Numbered from the stretch's first letter, positions 14,790 through 51,308 are shown. The stretch is DNA of 64,000 bases from Bdellovibrio sp. (GCA_043747435.1 JAYTPD010000021.1:75643-139642), one strand, 5' to 3'. Notes: generated by a model not told the origin, from the sequence alone. Translations and numbers: made by a program.

Positions 14790-16376
14790 TTACTGCTGGT
14801 TTAATAGTAATTCACCGACAATAGGTAAACTTAATAAGTTGCTCCAGAAGTTTTTACTGCTGTGTCGTGCTGCAATTTCAGAAGTAATTTGGTTACTTTC
14901 TACAACTGACAAATCTTGTTGAACTTTATCCTCACTGTTTGTTACATGCGTTTCTACATTCACCAATTTTGACGTCGCTAAAAATTCACTGATTCGGCTT
15001 CGAATGTCTTCGGTTGGATCAGATTTTTTTGTACCTTGAAGCCCAACAACAATTCCGACTTCGCTGTTTAAGTTTTGACTTCGATAGTCCCAATTGTAAG
15101 ATCCTATATAAGCTTTCGTGTTGTCCATCAAAACAATTTTAGCATGAAGAGTATCCAACGTTTTGGTAGAATTAATAATTTTTTGATCGGCACCTGTTAA
15201 AAATGCATTGCTGATATTATAATATTCGTAGATTTTTACATGCTGACCCGATTGAGCATTTTTGATATTCAACAGACGATCACGTGTTTTTAAATAACCT
15301 GATTGCGCAGATGGAACATCATTCGCATGAGTCGAATTTGTTATAAAGCGAACAGATACATCTTTTGTTTCGACTAAATACCTCACAAGTTGTTCCATTT
15401 CACGAGTTACAACCAAATAAGGTGTCACGATATAAAGATCTTTTTTTGTGTGATCCTTGATTGTGTCGTACAAAGTTTTACCTATATTGTACTCCGGATT
15501 TTTCCCTTTGCAGACAGAGTGGCTTGGATCATCGTGAATAAAAGTAATATCGTCTGTCTCGTAAGCTGTTTCAAAAGCTTTTAAAAGTGGGCGCTCAGAA
15601 ATTGTTTTTTCATTTTTAGCACTGACATCAGCGTAATGACGATCAAGAAGATCCATTTCAGATTTAATTTTGCGAACACTTTCTAAACGTTTATTTTCAC
15701 AGCTAAAAAAATCACCTTCACCTGAACTGCAGTACGAGTAATCAAGTTGGCTTGCTGAAAAATCATAAAGGTTAACAGCTTTAACATCAGATGAGTCCCA
15801 ACGTTTATTAAAGTACATTTCAGCTTCTTGAACAGATTTTGTTCCCTCGATCACGGCGTCTGTGCCTGCATAGGTAGGCAAAGACTGTTTGTTTTCGATT
15901 CCTGGAATTTGATAATATCCATTTGCAACATTTCGATCACCAACGATTAAATATTTTCCGTCTATAATTAAGGATTTATCGTGCATTCGTCGTGTGTAGC
16001 AAAACGGTCTAAAAATATTGAAGTTGTTAAACTCTTTGATTTGAATATTTTTTTGAGTGGTGCTGTCTAGACTATCTAACACAGCGGACATCAATTCGCG
16101 CGTCATCAGGTTATGCATTGAATCGACGATGATTCGAACTTGAGCTCCACGGCGTGCAGCTGCACGAAGCAGAGCTAAGCCCGAAATTGAAATATAATCG
16201 TGTTCGACAGTAAAGTATTGCACGTCAATTTTTTTTGCATGAGCCAAAAGCTCAACTCGCGCTTGTAAGGATTCAGCAGGTTTTTCTAAAACAATGATTT
16301 TATCGGCCAAGCTTGTCATGGCAAAAAAAATCATGGGCACTGTTATTTTAAGTAAAGCTTTGGTTAAAGTTGTCAC
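14790..16376 (-). CDS. Phospholipase D family protein (two HKD motifs), secreted
   Basis: HDKSLIIDGKYLIVGDRN and HAKIVLMDNTKAYIGSYNWDYRS, plus an N-terminal signal-like segment. Confidence 0.85.
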   Translation of the reverse strand: MTTLTKALLKITVPMIFFAMTSLADKIIVLEKPAESLQARVELLAHAKKIDVQYFTVEHDYISISGLALLRAAARRGAQVRIIVDSMHNLMTRELMSAVLDSLDSTTQKNIQIKEFNNFNIFRPFCYTRRMHDKSLIIDGKYLIVGDRNVANGYYQIPGIENKQSLPTYAGTDAVIEGTKSVQEAEMYFNKRWDSSDVKAVNLYDFSASQLDYSYCSSGEGDFFSCENKRLESVRKIKSEMDLLDRHYADVSAKNEKTISERPLLKAFETAYETDDITFIHDDPSHSVCKGKNPEYNIGKTLYDTIKDHTKKDLYIVTPYLVVTREMEQLVRYLVETKDVSVRFITNSTHANDVPSAQSGYLKTRDRLLNIKNAQSGQHVKIYEYYNISNAFLTGADQKIINSTKTLDTLHAKIVLMDNTKAYIGSYNWDYRSQNLNSEVGIVVGLQGTKKSDPTEDIRSRISEFLATSKLVNVETHVTNSEDKVQQDLSVVESNQITSEIAARHSSKNFWSNLLSLPIVGELLLNQQ

Positions 16377-16845
16377 AGCTATCCTCCGTCAAATTAAAAT
16401 TTCAAACAGTATGATGCAAACCCAACTCCAATTTGATTTAATCTTCACAATTTAGATTATGTCTTAGATTGAGACAGTCGAAATCGAATTTAAGATCTCT
16501 TAAACGAAATAAAGCTTGAACGAGTTCCATTTTTAAAATTTTTAAAAAATGCGTTGTTGAGTTAATTTAAAACTTGAGCTGTCGAACTTGCCCAAAATTG
16601 TCGTTCAAAAGCTATTCGAATCTCAAAACGACTTAAAAAGACTGACTAATTTTTTGACGTCGACCAATGTTTATCTATTTCATGTTTTTAGATGACTTAT
16701 TCTAATGAGTTAGAAGACTTAAAAAAATATAGAATGAAATTTAAACGACACATCGTCTTAGGTTGCGACGTTCTAAACGATGTTAAAAGTTTTGGCTGGT
16801 CTCATGTTTGATATGTTTTATAACGATAAGAGACCGGGGGATTTT

Positions 16846-42053: not shown

Positions 42054-42319
42054 GATTCCCCCTTAAATCAATGATAAGCCGTCCTCTTGCTCTAAATACT
42101 TTCGGCACCTAAGCATGGCTTAAGCAACGTGCTACCATCTCGATTTTTAATAAAGTTATTTTTTAAACCCAGAAAAAATAAAGAAATGGGTATTGCCGCT
42201 AAAGACTGAGCAACCAAGTGAATCGGTTAAATAAATTTGAAACTAAATTGAATTTAGCAGGTGTTTTTATTTACGCGGGGCGAAAAACGGTCAAAAAAAT
42301 TAAAAATTTTGGCTTACGC

Positions 42320-42383
42320 CAAAGGAATTTGAGGACTACAGCCGCGCTTTCAGCGGGCCTACGTCTTTCCTCAAATTCCTTTG
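42320..42383 (-). terminator. Long stem-loop downstream of the giant AAA+ gene (terminator or structured element)
   Basis: Perfect 16-bp inverted repeat CAAAGGAATTTGAGGA (42320-42335) / TCCTCAAATTCCTTTG (42368-42383). The 32-nt spacer contains a small inner hairpin (CCGC ... GCGG). A T-rich tract follows on the minus strand. Confidence 0.4.
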
Positions 42384-42424
42384 CCTCCAGCCATTCTAGT
42401 GTAAAAGGTAAAAAGAGCCAAGAG

Positions 42425-45400
42425 TTACGGGCTAATCCTCACGAGACGGAACCCCACATCGTTGCCAAGAGCACCAGGCGGGCCGTAGCTGCGATCACCG
42501 GAACGCAAGCGCTGCGCATCGTGGTACCAACTACCGCCACGCATGACGCGGGAAGAGCCCTTTACAGGGCCTTGTGGATCTTGTCCACCCTTGAGTTTTT
42601 TATTGTCCCAATCTTTATTCCATTCCCAAACATTGCCTTCTAGATCAAAGAAAGGCTTTCCATCAATCATGCGGGGTTGAAGCGTTGCTACTGCATGCGT
42701 TTTATTGCCTGAGTTTCCAGAAAACCAAGCGTGGTTCGGCACATCAGCCTCGTCGTCGCGATCAAAATGCTTTTCGTTAGCATTCCCACGATCACGCATC
42801 GTAAATTCCCATTGGGCTTCGGTTGGTAAATCGTAAACATCGCCTTTTTTATGTCCGGGGATTAGCTTGTCTAACAAAGCTTGATCTTTTGCATCGCCGG
42901 AATTTGAAAGCTTATTTAAACCAACTAAAAATTCTTTAATATCTTTATAGCTGACCTGTTCAACTGGATGGTCAGGCTTCATCTGAACATCAATGCCTTC
43001 TATATTTACCGTCGTGCTATCTGTACCAGTTTTAAATTTTGATGGATTAATTTTGCCAAGATCTTTTTCACCCATTGCAACTTTAAGTCGAGACCACATC
43101 ATTTGCGTCACTTGTGTCTGCATCATCGCAAAAGGTTTTGTGATTTTAGTATCAATTTGAGCATCACCCATTTTGAATTTTCCAGGAGTTATTTCATGGA
43201 AAGTCATTTTCTTAGCTAAGTTCACTGGATCAAGAGCTTCTTTAACAACTTTTTTCTGCTCTTCTTTTTTCTTTTCTTCCTGTTTACCAGTGTCTTTAGT
43301 TTCAGCTTGGATTTTTAAAATGATCTCTTTCATTTTTTCTTTTAATTGATCACGTGTCATAACTTTATGATCTTCAAGATACTTAATAAGCTCGGCCTCT
43401 TTTTTAACGTAATCCTGTTTAAGCGCAGTTAACTGTAAAGAACTTGCACCCTGAATTTTTTCTGTTTCAAGTTTTAGTCTGAATCTTGATAAGTTATCAA
43501 TAGCTGAGGCAACTGATTTTTTAATATCTGCTGGCACTTTACTTTGGTTTAAACCTGGGAATAGCTCAGGATATTTTGTAATTTCTGACTTGTACTCGGA
43601 CATAAAGTCGTGCGTGACTGAATTGACCACTTGAACGTAATCTCTGGCTTCATCAATCATCATTTCTAAATGAAATCTTGTGCGTGAATCCAGTACGCCT
43701 GATCCCAGAAGTCTTTCAATGACTTGCGAATCGTTTTTAAATACTAAAGTACCATCTTGATCGTATGCGCTTGTAATTTTTTGTGGAGCCCAGTAGCCAA
43801 GACCTTCAAAGAACAGATTTAAATCTTTCATCTCAACCGTAGTTCTAATATCTTTAAAAGCCACACCTTGCATCAGTTGATGAACGATGAATCTAGCCTT
43901 AAACTGATCAATCAATTTAATCACAGTTCTATCCGATGCACTTCCAGCGGCGGAAACATAGTAATCTGGAAATTCACGTGCATCCATTTTGTTAGCCTTA
44001 CGAGTTTCTTCTTCTTTTTTAATTCTTAAGGCCAAGAATTTTTCTTGAATCTTTGCTAACGCCTCTTTAACTGCTGGATTTTCAAATTCAACTTGATCAA
44101 CCAAAGGCTTAAGCTCGCCAACAGCTAAAAGACCTTTCCAGTTTGGTGAAATTCCTTTTTCAAGATTAGATAAAAACTGAGTTAAAGCTTGCTCTGATGA
44201 AATTTTGTTCGAGACGTAAACTTTGTTCGCTGCACGGTCCATGACCGCTTCGCCCGTTGATCTGTCTTCGTGATAAGAATCTAGAAACTCACTCGGCATT
44301 TTGTTTGATGTTAAAATAGCTGTTCTTAAAGCTGTTTTAATAACTTGGTTACCCGCAAAAACTTCACGTTCATTCAAAATCGAAAGAAGTGCTGTAATCG
44401 TTTGCGGATTGGCTTTATCAACTTCATCTAAAATTGCGAAAATAAATTTTTCTGATGCTAAGCTTGTTGATGTTTCAATTTCTTCAATACCATCGTTTAA
44501 TTGCTTCTCGATTTTTGGAAAACCAACTAAAACGCCTTCTGGTAATAACTTATGGAACTGAAGCAAAAATCGCTCAAACACTTTTGGCTTTTCATGGCGC
44601 ATTTTTTCTAAAACTGCATGAATAAATTTTTGATCCGCTTTTTTACTGGTTAAAACTTTTTTAGTAAAAGCGTCAATCTGATCAGCGTTCAACTTCTTAA
44701 GCTCTGATTTTAAAATCACTTCCGCTAACGCAGTTTTTGCTCCGCCCGGAGGACCAAACACATAAAGATGATTTTCCGATAATATTCCTGTTAAATGGGC
44801 TTCGATAGAATGTTCAAGCTCGACAAACCTTTGCTTGATGGCGCGAACTTCGTACCCCATCCAGTCGTAGTATCTTCCAACTTTCTCTTTTTCAGGAGCT
44901 GTCATCATTTCACGTCTGAAAGCTCTGATCTCTTTAGATGATCTTGGTGGCAGTAGCTTCTGTGCGGCTTGGGCTGGGCGCTGTGTGTTCTTGTCAGATT
45001 GTTGATTTAATGTCTCTGCAAATTGCTGTAAGTCCTGTTTAATACTTTCAAGCTCTTTCGCCGTTCGTTCTTTCACTGTGCCTTTAGCTAAAAGTTTATC
45101 AATAGATGTTGAATCAACTTCAAACTGAGGCTTTGTCAAATCAACTTTATTTGTGGCTAGGATTTCGTTCAGTCGATTTCCAATCGTGTTGTCATCAACT
45201 GAGTAGTCTTTAAATTCAGGAGTTTTGCTATCAACAATCCACTTACTTTGGCCAGCCTGATTTTCTAATTTTAAAATGATTTGCGTGTTTCCTTCCAGAT
45301 CTTGAAGGAAAAGCTTTCCGTCATACGGCGAGTATTCGACCTGAAGCTGCGATTTTATACCAAGGTCTGATTGGACTTGAATTCCATGAGCCGTTATTTT

Positions 45401-46588
45401 GCCGTCTTTAATTTCAGTGACTTTAAAAGTTTTAAGTCTAACTTGAGATGGACCAATGTAGAGTGCGCTTTTTGCTAATAATGCTAAATCTTCTTTCTGC
45501 GGAGTTAGACGCACTTTTTCAAATGGCACACCCTGCATCAACTGATGAGCTACAAGTGAAGCCTTAAAAACTTGAACCATTCTTCGTACAGAACGATTCG
45601 AGAACTGATTAGCCGGAAAGTATTCACTTTCGGCTTCATCGTATCTGACTTGTTCCCTAGATTTATCAGCCTTACTTGTAACGTAGCGATCAAAAGTTCT
45701 AGCAATTTCTACGATGTCTGCCATCATGTCGTCTGAAATTTTAACTTTATTGACTAATACTTCTAAAGCTCCCAGAGGAAGATTGATTTTTAATTTTTGT
45801 GGATTTTTAACAAGGTCATACATTGCAATCGTTTCGCGACTTGATAACTGCTGATTCGGGATGTGAATTTTAATTGCCATACGATCAAGTAATGCTTCGC
45901 CTGATGGACGATCAGAATAAAAACCTTGAATGAATTCACCTGTTGTTTTGTTCGACGTAAACACGCCGCTAGCTAAAATACTATCGACAACCTTAGATCC
46001 TAGAAAAGCTTTTCTTTCATTTAATACAGATAAAAGAGCATTTAAAACGGCCGGGTTTGATTTTTCAGCTTCATCAGCGATCAAAAATAAAAATTGATCC
46101 CCTACAAGTGAACTTTTGGTTTCAATTTCGTATTTTCCTTCTTTCATCATACTGGAAAACTTTTGAAATCCTGAAATTTTTCCTTCAGAAATTAATTTAT
46201 GAAATTGAAGCAAAAAGATCTTTTTATCACCCTCAGGAATAGAATTTAAAACTGATTGAAACATGATCCGAGATAAAAATGTTTTAGCGCCGCCGGGCTC
46301 TCCATTGATCCACACAAATTCTTTAGCTAAAATAGCAGTTGTCAGTGCCTCAATAACCTGTGATCTTCCGTAGACGGCTTGATCAATCTGCTTTAATGCA
46401 TTAACTGATTCTGCCCAAGTCACCTGTGATGATCTAGCTGGGGCTTGAACCAAAGCTTGTGGCGATACCTTCGAAGACACCTTATCTATAAATAGATCTT
46501 CACATCTATTTGTGGCATTTGCTGAAAGAGCATTTCCAGTTAAAGCTAACAATAATATAGAGGTCTTTAAACTAATTATTTTCGACAT
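42425..46588 (-). CDS. Exported giant protein: signal peptide + NRCEDLF motif + two RavA/MoxR-like AAA+ modules + C-terminal FGE/SUMF1-like (formylglycine-generating-enzyme fold) domain
   Basis: Signal peptide MSKIISLKTSILLLALTGNALSANA. Walker A GEPGGAKT (aa 96-103) and GPPGGAKT (aa 612-619). Walker B/sensor blocks LIADEAEKSNPAVLNALLSVLNER and AILDEVDKANPQTITALLSILNER. RavA-like SNRSVRRM / SDRTVIKL helices. FGE-fold motifs at aa ~1127-1387: LPTEAQWEF, GNVWEWNKDW, RVMRGGSW, GFRLVR. Confidence 0.85.
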   Translation of the reverse strand: MSKIISLKTSILLLALTGNALSANATNRCEDLFIDKVSSKVSPQALVQAPARSSQVTWAESVNALKQIDQAVYGRSQVIEALTTAILAKEFVWINGEPGGAKTFLSRIMFQSVLNSIPEGDKKIFLLQFHKLISEGKISGFQKFSSMMKEGKYEIETKSSLVGDQFLFLIADEAEKSNPAVLNALLSVLNERKAFLGSKVVDSILASGVFTSNKTTGEFIQGFYSDRPSGEALLDRMAIKIHIPNQQLSSRETIAMYDLVKNPQKLKINLPLGALEVLVNKVKISDDMMADIVEIARTFDRYVTSKADKSREQVRYDEAESEYFPANQFSNRSVRRMVQVFKASLVAHQLMQGVPFEKVRLTPQKEDLALLAKSALYIGPSQVRLKTFKVTEIKDGKITAHGIQVQSDLGIKSQLQVEYSPYDGKLFLQDLEGNTQIILKLENQAGQSKWIVDSKTPEFKDYSVDDNTIGNRLNEILATNKVDLTKPQFEVDSTSIDKLLAKGTVKERTAKELESIKQDLQQFAETLNQQSDKNTQRPAQAAQKLLPPRSSKEIRAFRREMMTAPEKEKVGRYYDWMGYEVRAIKQRFVELEHSIEAHLTGILSENHLYVFGPPGGAKTALAEVILKSELKKLNADQIDAFTKKVLTSKKADQKFIHAVLEKMRHEKPKVFERFLLQFHKLLPEGVLVGFPKIEKQLNDGIEEIETSTSLASEKFIFAILDEVDKANPQTITALLSILNEREVFAGNQVIKTALRTAILTSNKMPSEFLDSYHEDRSTGEAVMDRAANKVYVSNKISSEQALTQFLSNLEKGISPNWKGLLAVGELKPLVDQVEFENPAVKEALAKIQEKFLALRIKKEEETRKANKMDAREFPDYYVSAAGSASDRTVIKLIDQFKARFIVHQLMQGVAFKDIRTTVEMKDLNLFFEGLGYWAPQKITSAYDQDGTLVFKNDSQVIERLLGSGVLDSRTRFHLEMMIDEARDYVQVVNSVTHDFMSEYKSEITKYPELFPGLNQSKVPADIKKSVASAIDNLSRFRLKLETEKIQGASSLQLTALKQDYVKKEAELIKYLEDHKVMTRDQLKEKMKEIILKIQAETKDTGKQEEKKKEEQKKVVKEALDPVNLAKKMTFHEITPGKFKMGDAQIDTKITKPFAMMQTQVTQMMWSRLKVAMGEKDLGKINPSKFKTGTDSTTVNIEGIDVQMKPDHPVEQVSYKDIKEFLVGLNKLSNSGDAKDQALLDKLIPGHKKGDVYDLPTEAQWEFTMRDRGNANEKHFDRDDEADVPNHAWFSGNSGNKTHAVATLQPRMIDGKPFFDLEGNVWEWNKDWDNKKLKGGQDPQGPVKGSSRVMRGGSWYHDAQRLRSGDRSYGPPGALGNDVGFRLVRISP

Positions 46589-46750
46589 AGGTTCTCCATA
46601 ATTACATTCGATACAATAATTATGCCGCCATCTGTTTATGTATCACTTTAAAACATTCGTTTAATTTTTTAAAAAAAGTGTCTCAGTTCGATACACTTAG
46701 TTGATTTTTTGACAGCTCACGAGGCCCCAGTTTTGCAAAACATACATTTG
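46589..46750. promoter_or_regulatory. Divergent promoter region between the two giant genes
   Basis: A 162-bp AT-rich spacer between divergent starts. It contains two direct copies of TTCGATACA (46607-46615 and 46687-46695). Confidence 0.4.
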
Positions 46751-49700
46751 ATGAAAAAATTTATTTCGTACTTATCTTTAATATTAGCTCTTCATTTTAT
46801 AGGCGCCAATGCTCATGCGGCCAATCGTTGCGAGGATCTATTTTCACCCACTTCTACAGCTAAAACTGAAAACAAATCTTTAACTTCGACTAACGAATCT
46901 TGGGAACAACTTTATAAAAAATCTGATCTAAGTCCAAGACCCGCATTGTGGCTAAAGATTAGACAGTCGTTAGAAAAACACGTCACTCATCTTCAAAACC
47001 CTTTAGAAACGGCTGGCACTGATGCGAATAAAATTGGGGCCGTTTACAAATCGATGGTCTTAGAGCTTCCACTTTTAAAGACACTGATCGAAGCTGATCG
47101 GCTGCCAAGATTAAGTCATGCTGACTTTATTACTTTAAAAAGGCTAACCGCTAATCAAATTATTTCTATCAGCCACAAACCAAACTCGGCACTTCAAGTT
47201 TTTGCTAGCCTTGAAGCTTTAAAATATATTTCTTCAATCGAATCTCGCGTAGAATTCCCAAGAACTAAAGAGGAAATCGAAAAAGAGACTAAAAAACAAG
47301 AGGAAGAAAAAAAGAAGCAGGAAAAGAAAGAGAAAAAGAAAGAGAAAAAGAAAAAAGACAAAAAAGATCAGCCTGAAGACGATGAACCGCCTAAATGGAA
47401 TAAGACTGAAGATAAATACAAGCCTGAAAATAAAGATATAAGTTCTGAAGATGGCGGTAAGAAAAAAAGTGCCGACATCTTAATGACGAATGCCGATGTA
47501 CCAAAACGTCTTTTAAGACAAAAAATCTATGATCTTTTTGATCTAAATAATTGGTCATCAAATACTGTTCAGCGAAACGCTTTAGTTCGTGAAAATTCTT
47601 TTACTAAAAAGATGATTATCGACTCACTTGGTGAATCTGAAGTCGATGTTCCAGTTCCTTATGGATATACACTTGTTCCTGGAAAACACACAGGTTATGA
47701 GATAAAAGAAATTGGTCCTGGTGAATTTAAACTTTATCCAAGTTCTAAAGATAAATCCATAATCGGCTTAAGTCGAATTATTGATGAACCACATAATTCA
47801 AGCTTGCGCCGTCCTGTTGGGACTGATGTAACCGCGCACTGGCCGAAACACTTAATCACTTTTACTGAAAGCTTGCGCGGGCTATCAGCCGTCGATGCGG
47901 CTGCGAAAATGGAAAAGTATATTTCTTTAGATGGTGGATTTTTATATTACTCAAAAGGTGATAAAATCGATGAGGCCGAGCTATCTAAGATAGACCAAAA
48001 AATGAATTCTCTTTTATCACAAATGCCAAAACCAATGGCTATGGCAAACGCAGGAGCCTTTAACTGCGACGGTGCTGCGTGGATTGGTGCTATTTTACTT
48101 CGAGATGTTTTAGGACACCAAGTGCGTATTGCAGGCGGCAGAACTTCGGCTGGAGTAAAAACAATTGAAAATGACAAGTTCCATGTTGTGAGATCATCTG
48201 ATCCAGCCCATGCTTGGCTTGAAGTTTATGATGGCAAAAACTGGAAGCCGTTTGATATGACTCCGAAAAATAATACGCCTGATTCTGATTCAGCTTCTAC
48301 TGATTTAGAAAGAGACGAGCCGCAAGATTCGCCGCCAAAAGACAGTAAGCCTGATCAACAAAAAGGTGAACAAAAATCAAAATCTGACAGCAAAGATAAA
48401 GATGCTGAGAAAAAAGACGAAGAAGCCAAAGAAGAAGATGGCAAAGACGGCGAAGAAAAAGATAAGTCTGATAAAAAAGAAGCTGGCGAAGACAAGGGCG
48501 ATAAATCTGGAAAAGATGAAGTCATTGATGGCGAGACCAGAAAAATTGATGAGCTTATTAAAGCCAAGTCTACACAAAGACAAAAAGACGAATCGCACTT
48601 AGCTTTGATTGATAAGCTTTTAAAGCGAAATGAATTGATGTTTTTAGAACATCTTATTTATGACGGCCATCAAACCAAATTTATGGAAGAATCGAATCAA
48701 GTTTTAACAAGCTTAAAAGCTCAACCAAACTGGAAAAATCAAGTCGAGCGTTCTGAGCAAAAAATATCTGGAATTCTAAATGAATCAAAATTTTCTAAGT
48801 TTGGTGGCTTAAGTCATTTGATTAACGAAATCCGAGTTGATTTCGGTCAAAATAAATCTCGCGACGCAAGACAAAAAATGATGATTGCAGAACGTCTTTT
48901 ACTTAACTTATCTGAATACCGTAATTTAACACGTGCAGAAATTGAATCTTTAACTACAATCCAAAAAATCTCGTCAATGTTGGATCAAGTGAGGCATAAA
49001 AATTCTAAAGAGTTCGATGTGGTCGATGAGCTACTTAAAGATTTACCAGGTAATGTTTCAAAAGAATGGCTACGACGCCAGTACGGAAAAGATTTTGACC
49101 AATTAGGCACTTCGGCAAATATCAAACTTGCAAATGACTTAGTTTCTGGAAAATTAAAGCCCCTTCTTCAAATGGGTGCTGTAAGTGATTTCGTTGATAT
49201 GACGTTAAACTCATCTCAAGAGCCGCAATGGAAAGACGAACCTACTTTAAATAGAAGTATTTTGCCAAAACCACGTCAAGATTTAATCGTAACCCGTAAT
49301 CCACTTGATTTTGCAAAAATGCTTTGGAATTTACGCCCTGGTGAAAATATGTTTGCGCCCACTTTGCAAGGCCGTCAATTTGCTATGGGAAGCTTAGAAA
49401 CCCGCCGTGTTCCAAATCCTAAAAACCCAATCGAGAGAAAAGTTTCTGTTGTGTACTATGATATTTCAGGTTCTATGAACGGTCATCCTTTAGAAACAGT
49501 CGATGCGCTTTTAATGGCTTTTGCAGACACAGCATTATCAGAAGTAGATGCCATCGGTAGACCAACACATGAAATTTATTTAATCCCGTTTGATGATAAA
49601 ATTTACGAAGGCGTTCATATGTCATCACGTGAGGATGCAACAAATTTCTTAGCTAAAAAAATGAATATGCGAACCCAAGCAGCGGGTGGAACAGATATTC

Positions 49701-50392
49701 AAAAAGTCATTGAAAATTTCTACAGTTTAATTTCTTCAAGTTACCAAAATAAATCAGGCCAAGGTCGCGAAAAGTTATTTCAAAAGGCGAATATGGTCTT
49801 ATTCACTGACGGCGGCTCACAAATCGACATGCAAAGAATTGAAGAGGCTAGAAAAAAAATCCCAAGTGCCGTTCAAATTAACATGAATTTTGTGTCGATT
49901 GGTGATTCAGTAAATGAAACTCTTAAAGCTTTATCCTCGAACAGCAAGCTCTCAACAACGAAGCCGACATTCAGAAAAATGAATTCTCAGATGATTAGCT
50001 CGGTTGTTGGCGTTTCATCAAACTACGATCCAGCGGCTTTTGCGACTGCGGAAAAGATTTCTGGCAGAACTTTGGCTGAAATTAACGAGCAACTTCAAAA
50101 AATCAATGTTGATCCTAGACAGCCGGGAAACAAAGACCAAATTGATAAAGCCTTATCGCAGATCCAAATAACTAAATCAGATGTTAGTAAGCTATCTGGT
50201 CTTCGTGAAATTTTAAATTTACAAAAACTTGAAACTGTCATTGATGACATGAAAATTAACCAAGTCACTAAGCAAAGATTGGTTCAGGCCATTGTTGAAT
50301 CCTACACACAACTGACCGGAAGAAGCTGGAAAGATATGACTTATGAAGAGAAAGAAGCCTTAGAAAAATTAAAAAAATGGTCAAGCCAATAA
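46751..50392 (+). CDS. Exported giant protein: signal peptide + NRCEDLF motif + transglutaminase-like cysteine protease core + C-terminal vWA (MIDAS) domain
   Basis: ATG at 46751 gives MKKFISYLSLILALHFIGANAHA. Transglutaminase triad FNCDGAAW (Cys codon 48065-48067), HAWLEVY (His 48209-48211) and FDMTP. vWA MIDAS is DISGSM (from 49460), GGTD and LFTDGG. Two K/E/D-rich low-complexity linkers. Confidence 0.85.
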   Translation: MKKFISYLSLILALHFIGANAHAANRCEDLFSPTSTAKTENKSLTSTNESWEQLYKKSDLSPRPALWLKIRQSLEKHVTHLQNPLETAGTDANKIGAVYKSMVLELPLLKTLIEADRLPRLSHADFITLKRLTANQIISISHKPNSALQVFASLEALKYISSIESRVEFPRTKEEIEKETKKQEEEKKKQEKKEKKKEKKKKDKKDQPEDDEPPKWNKTEDKYKPENKDISSEDGGKKKSADILMTNADVPKRLLRQKIYDLFDLNNWSSNTVQRNALVRENSFTKKMIIDSLGESEVDVPVPYGYTLVPGKHTGYEIKEIGPGEFKLYPSSKDKSIIGLSRIIDEPHNSSLRRPVGTDVTAHWPKHLITFTESLRGLSAVDAAAKMEKYISLDGGFLYYSKGDKIDEAELSKIDQKMNSLLSQMPKPMAMANAGAFNCDGAAWIGAILLRDVLGHQVRIAGGRTSAGVKTIENDKFHVVRSSDPAHAWLEVYDGKNWKPFDMTPKNNTPDSDSASTDLERDEPQDSPPKDSKPDQQKGEQKSKSDSKDKDAEKKDEEAKEEDGKDGEEKDKSDKKEAGEDKGDKSGKDEVIDGETRKIDELIKAKSTQRQKDESHLALIDKLLKRNELMFLEHLIYDGHQTKFMEESNQVLTSLKAQPNWKNQVERSEQKISGILNESKFSKFGGLSHLINEIRVDFGQNKSRDARQKMMIAERLLLNLSEYRNLTRAEIESLTTIQKISSMLDQVRHKNSKEFDVVDELLKDLPGNVSKEWLRRQYGKDFDQLGTSANIKLANDLVSGKLKPLLQMGAVSDFVDMTLNSSQEPQWKDEPTLNRSILPKPRQDLIVTRNPLDFAKMLWNLRPGENMFAPTLQGRQFAMGSLETRRVPNPKNPIERKVSVVYYDISGSMNGHPLETVDALLMAFADTALSEVDAIGRPTHEIYLIPFDDKIYEGVHMSSREDATNFLAKKMNMRTQAAGGTDIQKVIENFYSLISSSYQNKSGQGREKLFQKANMVLFTDGGSQIDMQRIEEARKKIPSAVQINMNFVSIGDSVNETLKALSSNSKLSTTKPTFRKMNSQMISSVVGVSSNYDPAAFATAEKISGRTLAEINEQLQKINVDPRQPGNKDQIDKALSQIQITKSDVSKLSGLREILNLQKLETVIDDMKINQVTKQRLVQAIVESYTQLTGRSWKDMTYEEKEALEKLKKWSSQ

Positions 50393-50414: not shown

Positions 50415-50720
50415 CTAGGCGGCGGGCTTCACTTCCAAAATAAGCTGATAGCCCATAATACTTAAAATCCGGTGAATTGTTTCGATTGTAGGGGTTCGCC
50501 GATGATCCCCATTTTCTAGGCGAGCAATCATAGGCTGACTGACCTTGGCTTTTTTGGCAACTTCAGCTTGAGAAAAACCCACTTTTTCACGTAAGTCTCG
50601 AATCAAGTGGGCGATCTGAAGATAAAAGCGTCTTTCATCAAAAGCAATTTTGAACTCTTCATTTTTTTGATATTTTGAAACGATCTGATCCAAAGACTTG
50701 CTTGGAATTTTCTTTTTCAT
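50415..50720 (-). CDS. XRE-family helix-turn-helix protein
   Basis: REKVGFSQAEVAKKAKVSQPMIARLENG is a classic Cro/C1 HTH. Confidence 0.8.
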   Translation of the reverse strand: MKKKIPSKSLDQIVSKYQKNEEFKIAFDERRFYLQIAHLIRDLREKVGFSQAEVAKKAKVSQPMIARLENGDHRRTPTIETIHRILSIMGYQLILEVKPAA

Positions 50721-51029: not shown

Positions 51030-51308
51030 TTAAAGATTTTCAAAATCATGTCGTTCTTTTTTGGTAGCTTTTCTTGCGCTGATAATTCTGATTACATTTT
51101 TTTCTTCATGCGCAATGTGAACAACGAAAAGTAGTTTCTTATTGTAGCTATGGCCAATCAAAATCTGGCGATGTTCATCTTCTGAGTGATCTGGGTCAAA
51201 AGCGATTTTGGCTAAGTCATCAAAAAATACTGTTGAGGCCTCTTCAAAAGAAACCTTATGCTTTTTTAGGTTTTGGTCGGCTTTCCGCGCATCCCATTCA
51301 AACTTCAT
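51030..51308 (-). CDS. BrnT-family toxin (DUF497)
   Basis: MKFEWDARKADQNLKKHKVSFEEASTVFFDD ... IRIISARKATKKER matches the BrnT family pattern. Confidence 0.85.
   Translation of the reverse strand: MKFEWDARKADQNLKKHKVSFEEASTVFFDDLAKIAFDPDHSEDEHRQILIGHSYNKKLLFVVHIAHEEKNVIRIISARKATKKERHDFENL

Follow-up and report, generated by a model that had tools for sequence, protein, structure and literature searches.

A genome-specific N-terminal cysteine tag on the predicted exported parts of a MoxR-vWA-sensor module in Bdellovibrionota

In a 64,000-nt stretch of DNA from Bdellovibrio sp. (GCA_043747435.1 JAYTPD010000021.1:75643-139642; hereafter the window), two divergent genes, A and B, encode large proteins that both carry the heptapeptide NRCEDLF directly behind a predicted signal peptide. 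Judged from the sequences of these and related loci, NRCEDLF is this genome's version of an N-terminal cysteine tag found on every separately encoded part of a predicted exported module, which consists of a MoxR-type AAA+ ATPase (A), a von Willebrand factor A (vWA) protein with a thiol-enzyme domain (B) and sensor domains or proteins. So far, the exported MoxR-vWA-sensor module with cysteine tags has been found only in Bdellovibrionota. The tag may serve as a homotypic assembly tag that is locked by an intermolecular disulfide, a reading to which we assign a probability of about 0.45.

A six-frame search of the 64-kb window returned exactly two occurrences of NRCEDLF, one in each gene. In A, the tag is encoded at 46490..46510 on the minus strand (residues 27-33; Cys29 codon at 46502-46504), behind a signal peptide at 46514..46588 on the same strand (residues 1-25, MSKIISLKTSILLLALTGNALSANA) whose basic n-region and hydrophobic core lead up to an A-N-A site; 65 homologues have the same layout. 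In B, the tag lies at 46823..46843 on the plus strand (residues 25-31; Cys27 codon at 46829-46831) and the signal peptide at 46751..46819, also on the plus strand (residues 1-23, MKKFISYLSLILALHFIGANAHA). Both N-termini have the features of a Sec (type I) signal peptide: the n-region is basic, the core is hydrophobic, and the residues at -3 and -1 are small. The cleavage sites were placed by the -3/-1 rule, using inspection and a simple rule-based scan, so that A reads ...LTGNALSANA/TNRCEDLF and B reads ...HFIGANAHA/ANRCEDLF. An earlier note on this DNA had placed NRCEDLF at +2 to +8 behind both predicted cleavage sites, and the six-frame search and the translations agree with that position.

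The tag cysteine is the only cysteine of A (C29) and one of two in B (C27, the other being C439 in FNCDG); a recount of both translations found no further cysteines and thus matched the earlier count. With a cysteine content of 1.0% in the other 50 non-overlapping open reading frames (ORFs) of the window, the probability of finding at most one cysteine in 1387 residues is 1.3e-5 for A, and that of finding at most two in 1213 residues is 4.4e-4 for B. Because the remaining ORFs average 1.0%, the depletion in A and B is real. The accompanying claim that other secreted proteins of the window contain many cysteines applies to two lipoproteins, which are the only cysteine-rich exported proteins (11 and 7 cysteines), but not to the other signal-peptide-like ORFs, which have 0-4. 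Two unrelated chance 7-mers are also common to other ORF pairs in the window, so a shared 7-mer alone is not rare. The significance of the tag lies in its position, its rare residue and its conservation in relatives.

Database searches at the protein level yielded 65 A homologues and 55 B homologues, and every homologue with a named organism came from a metagenome-assembled genome of uncultured Bdellovibrionales, Pseudobdellovibrionaceae or Oligoflexia (Bdellovibrionota). The tag cysteine formed an invariant column in A (Cys29, in one alignment of 27 homologues and another of 39, reaching down to 31% identity) and in B (Cys27, 27 homologues), and across the two families it was kept down to 31-32% identity. 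Conservation of the motif in orthologous pairs, a point raised by the earlier note, therefore extends to the cysteine and to a tag at the protein level, but not to the exact heptapeptide, of which only C-x-x-hydrophobic-hydrophobic is retained. No cysteine was present downstream of the tag cysteine in 51 of the 65 A homologues, and exactly one, the catalytic one, followed the tag in 47 of the 53 B homologues with an intact N-terminus. The description of the tag cysteine as the only spare cysteine thus holds family-wide.

Among 87 distinct N-termini, the consensus was A-x-A, two to three residues, and then [RK]-C-[ESA]-[DE]-[LIV]-[FLY]. Relative to the cysteine, the residue at +3 was hydrophobic in 94% of the sequences and the residue at +4 in 100%, and the cysteine itself, counted from the nearest AxA-like site, stood at +3 to +5 in 73 of the 87. 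Arg or Lys occupied -1 in 60% of the tags, and acidic residues were present at +1/+2 in 79%. Of the 52 tags with a basic -1 residue in the alignment of 87, 49 also had an acidic one at +1/+2; of the 35 tags lacking a basic -1 residue, 20 did (Fisher p = 6e-5, phylogeny ignored). This charge pattern suits a two-fold antiparallel, self-complementary pairing around a disulfide, although it is only suggestive.

In the structural models of both proteins, the predicted local distance difference test (pLDDT) score fell below 50 around the tag (A residues 24-26 and 30-48; B residues 18-26 and 28-49), and the first confident domain started at about residue 50. The stretch after the tag also varies in length and sequence in the family alignments. 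In these models, the tag resembles a short linear motif carried by a probably flexible tether of ~20-25 residues. In one subclade (P0012, residues 1-80, and L007:9833-10070), A has a lipoprotein signal (LISLGC, ITSC) in place of the signal peptide, followed by a spacer of ~50 residues and then by the tag (AAAMRCENLF, AAVRCEYLF), indicating that the tag need not adjoin the signal-peptidase site. The spacer holds a second conserved cysteine upstream of the tag (D-F-C-E-N, E-D-C-N-Q).

The tag is not confined to A and B. About one-third of the A homologues are short (~1000 residues) and lack the formylglycine-generating enzyme (FGE) domain that ends the window's A; the sensors of these systems are separate genes beside A and B, and 2 to 7 extra proteins per such locus bear their own signal peptide and tag. 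They comprise six full-length FGE proteins and one partial one at L009 (where the B gene is not on the contig), three proteins at L010 (at least one of them WD40), five tandem proteins each at L022 and L023 (the three that were scanned being Kelch propellers), two each at L024 and L033 without a Pfam match, and three with repeats at L030, the most distant system. These free-standing sensors are nearly free of non-tag cysteines, except at L030, where the repeat domains are cysteine-rich. The earlier view of the tag as a dedicated feature of the A-B pair was therefore too narrow, since free-standing FGE, Kelch and WD40 sensors are tagged too.

The sensor tag is followed by a conserved helical adaptor of ~60 residues, which by alignment corresponds to residues ~1010-1100 in the long A of the window, with no tag in front; a long A thus corresponds to a short A plus a sensor minus the signal peptide and tag of the latter. 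One tag per predicted exported polypeptide is the rule. A profile of the sensor adaptor gave no match at E <= 1e-3 in a search of 5.8 billion proteins. As a separate observation, L018:3-18475 contains three tandem long-A paralogues (one cut by the contig end) beside a single B, with nearly identical tags (GPQCSTVF and GPQCSNMF; GPMCSEVF in B).

Tags were compared over ten positions around the cysteine in 36 genomes. The A and B tags of the same genome were 44.7% identical, whereas those of different genomes were 19.8% identical, and orthologous tags across genomes (A-A, B-B) shared only 20-22%. None of 100,000 partner permutations matched the observed score. The tag of A was closer to that of its own B than to that of another genome's A in 1018 comparisons, and further from it in 109. 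The sensors followed the same pattern, with identities of A-sensor and B-sensor tags of 0.31-0.32 within genomes versus 0.10-0.14 between genomes. For example, A and B share RCEDLF in the window, NKCAELFL in L027 and LLCKDIF in P0024/P0088, all of which have the sensor fused to A. In L022, A carries CESLLRG, B carries CNRILHA and the sensors carry five copies of C-x-x-[LIV]-LSG, and in L009, A carries CSAEIL and the sensors CSAAVL and variants.

The two tags of the window are encoded by aat aga tgt gaa gat cta ttt (A) and aat cgt tgc gag gat cta ttt (B), and codon-by-codon comparison reproduced the synonymous differences reported earlier. Among tag positions with the same residue, 54 of 136 codons were identical, compared with 57.6 expected from codon usage. 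Recent gene conversion of the tags was rejected because the synonymous sites are randomised (54/136), and these codon statistics uphold the earlier proposal of protein-level conservation rather than recent DNA duplication. The idea that the two tags form an inverted repeat at the DNA level was also rejected, because L015, L024 and L030 have A and B in tandem and still have matching tags. The randomised synonymous sites and the tandem loci together indicate that selection holds the peptides of non-homologous partners alike.

Under homotypic assembly, the tags of different components would recognise each other once the proteins have been exported and their signal peptides cleaved off; recognition would rely on the two hydrophobic residues and on complementarity between the basic (-1) and acidic (+1, +2) residues. 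A disulfide between the two cysteines would then lock the pairing, a chemistry open only outside the cytoplasm. The ATPase, the vWA/thiol-enzyme partner and, in other genomes, the exchangeable sensors would thereby remain coupled after leaving the cell; in the window, where the sensor is fused to A, the expected product would be one A-B disulfide. Such an assembly tag would account for the single invariant cysteine per chain, the cysteine purge, the single tag per polypeptide and the matching tags within a genome. Non-catalytic cysteines would have been purged because a spare cysteine would mispair in an oxidising compartment. The intermolecular disulfide between exported partners that the earlier note proposed would still be the most economical use of a single invariant cysteine, but it would not be reserved for A and B.

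Several points weigh against this assembly tag. A shared receptor that co-evolves with the tags explains their co-variation equally well. Up to seven tagged proteins are encoded on the L009 contig, so one pairwise bond cannot join all of them. The charged tag residues are not invariant, and in P0012/L007, the second cysteine could pair with the tag cysteine within the chain. Moreover, an exported ATPase with intact Walker motifs leaves some doubt as to where the module acts; ATP is not known to occur in the periplasm. The module may work in a place that offers prey ATP, or else its localisation differs from the sequence prediction.

The likeness of all tags in one genome would also be expected of ligands of a single site, and the tag might instead be a peptide that docks at a site within the module, such as the Cys439 cleft of B, the metal of the metal-ion-dependent adhesion site (MIDAS) in the vWA domain, or the AAA+ pore. 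It could form a mixed disulfide with Cys439, or be a cleavage or ligation site at which the thiol enzyme releases or cross-links components. The sole other conserved cysteine in the system is indeed the catalytic Cys439 in its invariant Cys-His-Asp triad, the acidic residues at +1/+2 in 79% of the tags could be bound by the MIDAS metal, and published models of MoxR-vWA ternary systems include peptidase cleavage of components (PMC7159879, PMC10907252). However, each B offers one active site, compared with up to seven tags per locus, and B is itself tagged. The acidic residues vary, a conserved Gln or Lys that would be an obvious transglutaminase substrate residue is absent from the tag, and no co-varying receptor residues were identified. 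We therefore regard docking as unlikely.

The earlier note had alternatively suggested a new N-terminal sorting or covalent-attachment signal, which would be read by machinery encoded elsewhere and might direct outer-membrane passage, surface display, delivery to prey or thiol-linked anchoring. Such a signal would suit the near-fixed distance from the signal-peptidase site (+3 to +5 in 73/87) and the single tag per exported polypeptide, which disappears upon fusion of the sensor to A, and the need of the AAA+ modules for ATP suggests a final destination other than the periplasm. Known sorting signals, however, keep one consensus across genomes and vary freely within a genome, whereas the tags show the reverse, and this genome-specific co-variation fits sorting less well than tag-tag or tag-receptor recognition. 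The tag of P0012/L007, ~50 residues from the N-terminus and behind a genuine lipobox, also argues against a sorting function, which we consider improbable.

Searches for the machinery or for other carriers of such a signal point in the same direction. Clustering of the flanking ORFs for a neighbour that could read or modify the tag (an oxidoreductase, an acyltransferase or a sortase-like protein) revealed no conserved candidate enzyme or transporter gene adjoining the loci; only genes of diversity-generating retroelements (DGRs) recurred. Among 106 other signal-peptide-like ORFs in the flanks of ~30 loci (~0.5 Mb), two matched a loose pattern of the tag and both were spurious hydrophobic ORFs, so that the search for the tag on unrelated secreted proteins, by which the earlier note proposed to recognise a generic export tag, found none in the flanking DNA sampled. 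A profile of signal peptide and tag (39 positions, 87 sequences) returned 4 matches at E <= 1e-3 among 1.84 billion representatives, namely two B-family fragments and two repetitive junk sequences, but the profile also missed true family members and so had little power.

It is very unlikely that the tag cysteines and the adjacent acidic residues act together as ligands of a metal ion or cofactor, which would bridge several N-termini. A single invariant cysteine per chain, flanked by Glu/Asp in 79% of the tags, could contribute to such a centre, and a multi-ligand centre suits several tagged chains per locus better than a pairwise disulfide. Nevertheless, the tag has no second conserved ligand (His or Cys), its acidic positions vary, a thiolate-metal site would be unusual in an oxidising compartment, and the strictly hydrophobic +3/+4 pair would be left without explanation.

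Coincidence or an atypical lipobox, for which the two other chance 7-mers in the window and the closeness of the cysteine to the signal peptide might speak, has a negligible probability, since family-wide invariance and within-genome co-variation exclude chance, and a lipobox was rejected, as in the earlier note, because the cysteine lies 3-5 residues past the AxA site rather than at +1, Arg/Lys stands at -1 in 60% of the tags, the window's lipoproteins use canonical boxes (LTIYSC, FLTSC) and P0012/L007 carry a separate canonical lipobox besides the tag.

By its components, the module belongs with the MoxR-vWA ternary systems (Kaur et al. 2020, PMC7159879), of which it is a variant whose cysteine tag has no described counterpart. 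VMAP, iSTAND and beta-propeller types are known among these conflict systems. As in those systems, a bpMoxR-type AAA+ protein is paired with a vWA/MIDAS protein encoded by the adjacent gene, and the third component is a beta-propeller or FGE/C-type-lectin sensor, fused to A here and separate in relatives. A transglutaminase-fold thiol peptidase, which occurs occasionally there, is present as well, and the FGE domain is diversified by DGRs in relatives. Unlike the cytoplasmic ternary systems, all components described here have Sec signal peptides, are nearly cysteine-free and are cysteine-tagged; in addition, the MoxR module is duplicated in one chain, and the system is confined to predatory Bdellovibrionota. 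A Pfam scan of the components detected no VMAP, iSTAND or effector-associated domain (EAD). The terms 'signal peptide' and 'Bdellovibrio' are absent from Kaur et al. 2020 (PMC7159879) and 2021 (PMC8195603), 'disulfide' is absent from the 2020 paper, and a literature search found nothing closer.

A similar principle is that of the EADs, in which a common N-terminal adaptor domain on core and partner proteins is thought to join them homotypically (PMC8195603). The tag is similarly an N-terminal module common to the core and the separately encoded partners of one genome. EADs, however, are globular, helical, cytoplasmic domains of ~80-100 residues, whereas the tag has ~10 residues with one cysteine, is modelled with pLDDT <50 and occurs in exported proteins. 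By analogy, a disulfide-locked peptide would do the job of an EAD outside the cell.

Other known systems share single features with the module. An invariant cysteine just behind an N-terminal signal peptide is also typical of the lipoprotein lipobox ([LVI][ASTVI][GAS]C). The C-terminal C-type-lectin/FGE fold of A with its variable region resembles DGR variable proteins (Mtd, TvpA), but the target here is fused to a double AAA+ ATPase. Some MoxR-linked DGR targets reportedly have signal peptides (Dore et al. 2024, PMC10907252); neither this family nor a cysteine tag is described in that paper. The AAA+ modules of A share their fold with RavA, but RavA and ViaA are cytoplasmic and untagged, and the middle domain of B shares the fold of the periplasmic domain of TgpA, which is a membrane protein without a vWA domain. 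Eukaryotic extracellular multimers such as fibrinogen and von Willebrand factor have N-terminal disulfide knots, in which intermolecular disulfides formed in an oxidising compartment link the chains close to their N-termini, ahead of coiled-coil or vWA-containing regions. These knots have no sequence relationship to the tag and several cysteines per chain, whereas each tagged chain has one cysteine and a recognition peptide specific to its genome.

Should the tags pair and become cross-linked, they would represent a minimal, evolvable adaptor of ~10 residues and one cysteine for post-secretion assembly, replacing the folded adaptor domains of cytoplasmic relatives. It is possible, though doubtful, that they form a genome-specific 'disulfide zip code' by which an ATP-driven receptor machine with DGR-diversifiable sensors self-assembles from separately exported parts outside the predator cytoplasm. 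If so, a MoxR AAA+ protein would work in an extracytoplasmic place with ATP, for example the prey cytoplasm or a leaking prey cell, and a cytoplasmic immune-type ternary system would have been turned outward for recognising or handling prey. AAA+ proteins with fully conserved ATP sites behind classical signal peptides are relevant to the places and ways in which predators use energy-dependent machinery on their prey. The co-variation predicts that tag swaps would re-wire which parts assemble, and protein engineering could profit from short orthogonal tags by which proteins are coupled specifically in oxidising compartments.

Gene A (42425..46588, minus strand) encodes 1387 amino acids, and its architecture was derived from the translation, Pfam and an AlphaFold2 model. 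The signal peptide, cysteine tag and tether are followed by MoxR AAA+ module 1, module 2, a helical adaptor and an FGE-sulfatase/C-type-lectin-fold sensor. Pfam matches were PF20030 bpMoxR (9.7e-28), AAA_5 and PF03781 FGE-sulfatase (1.2e-29); in an NCBIfam scan, all matches of A were below threshold and B had none. The AlphaFold2 model of residues 1-1063 had a mean pLDDT of 78, and its top fold match in the PDB was E. coli RavA (3nbx, E 4.5e-5). Walker motifs were present in both modules (residues 96-103, 172-173, 612-619 and 721-722), and the residues K102/T103, D172/E173, K618/T619 and D721/E722 were invariant in the family alignments.

The helical adaptor of A (43289..43561, minus strand; about residues 1010-1100) is homologous to the post-tag region of the free-standing sensors. 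The FGE-sulfatase/C-type-lectin-fold domain (42437..43192, minus strand; residues 1133-1384) contains no cysteine and is therefore not a catalytic formylglycine-generating enzyme, which needs an active-site cysteine pair. The last ~45 residues of A (window 42428-42562) are hypervariable relative to orthologues that are 89-92% identical overall. In five relatives (L003, L020, L021, L026 and L027), a DGR with an HRDC protein, bAvd and reverse transcriptase lies directly beside a long A. In L027, the 126-nt variable region is located at the 3' end of A and differs from the template repeat (pair at L027:13939-14064 and 16367-16492) at 16 positions, 14 of which are template adenines. No template repeat, reverse transcriptase or Avd was found within the 64 kb of the window; the DGR parts of the window's A could lie beyond it. 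An inverted repeat at 42310-42393, ~30 nt downstream of the A stop codon, has 26-nt arms (85% complementary) and a 32-nt loop; it may represent a terminator or what is left of a DGR-associated hairpin.

Gene B (46751..50392, plus strand) encodes 1213 amino acids, as derived from the translation, Pfam and fold matching. The start was assigned to the ATG at 46751 rather than to an upstream TTG, because orthologues begin with MKKFIS. Behind the signal peptide, cysteine tag and tether, B contains a helical N-domain, a charged linker, a TgpA-like transglutaminase-fold domain, a second charged linker, a helical region and a vWA domain with a MIDAS. The Pfam matches were weak, both for Transglut_core (below the gathering score, but above it for the B of L024) and for VWA_CoxE. 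The model of B matched the periplasmic domain of Pseudomonas TgpA in a Foldseek search of the PDB (6g49/6g4h, E 1e-9), and the triad C439/H487/D502 was invariant in the alignment of 27 homologues. From sequence and model, the middle domain is predicted to be a TgpA-like transglutaminase-fold thiol enzyme with a Cys-His-Asp triad on a papain-like core. The codon of the predicted catalytic Cys439 (FNCDG), the only cysteine of B besides that of the tag, lies at 48065..48067 on the plus strand. The MIDAS motif D904-x-S906-x-S908 was likewise invariant in the B family, whose members carry PF00092.

Low-complexity linkers rich in Lys, Glu and Asp flank the transglutaminase-fold domain at 47280-47460 (residues ~180-235) and 48290-48530 (~515-593), and residues 203-210, 225-237 and 513-593 were modelled at pLDDT <50. 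Genes A and B diverge from an intergenic stretch of 162 bp (46589..46750), in which a promoter scan gave one weak sigma-70-like match on the minus strand, no better than chance. Just downstream of B, two small ORFs are located on the minus strand at 50415-50720 and 51030-51308 (101 and 92 amino acids); judged by eye, they look like an antitoxin-toxin pair of a helix-turn-helix protein and a BrnT-like protein.

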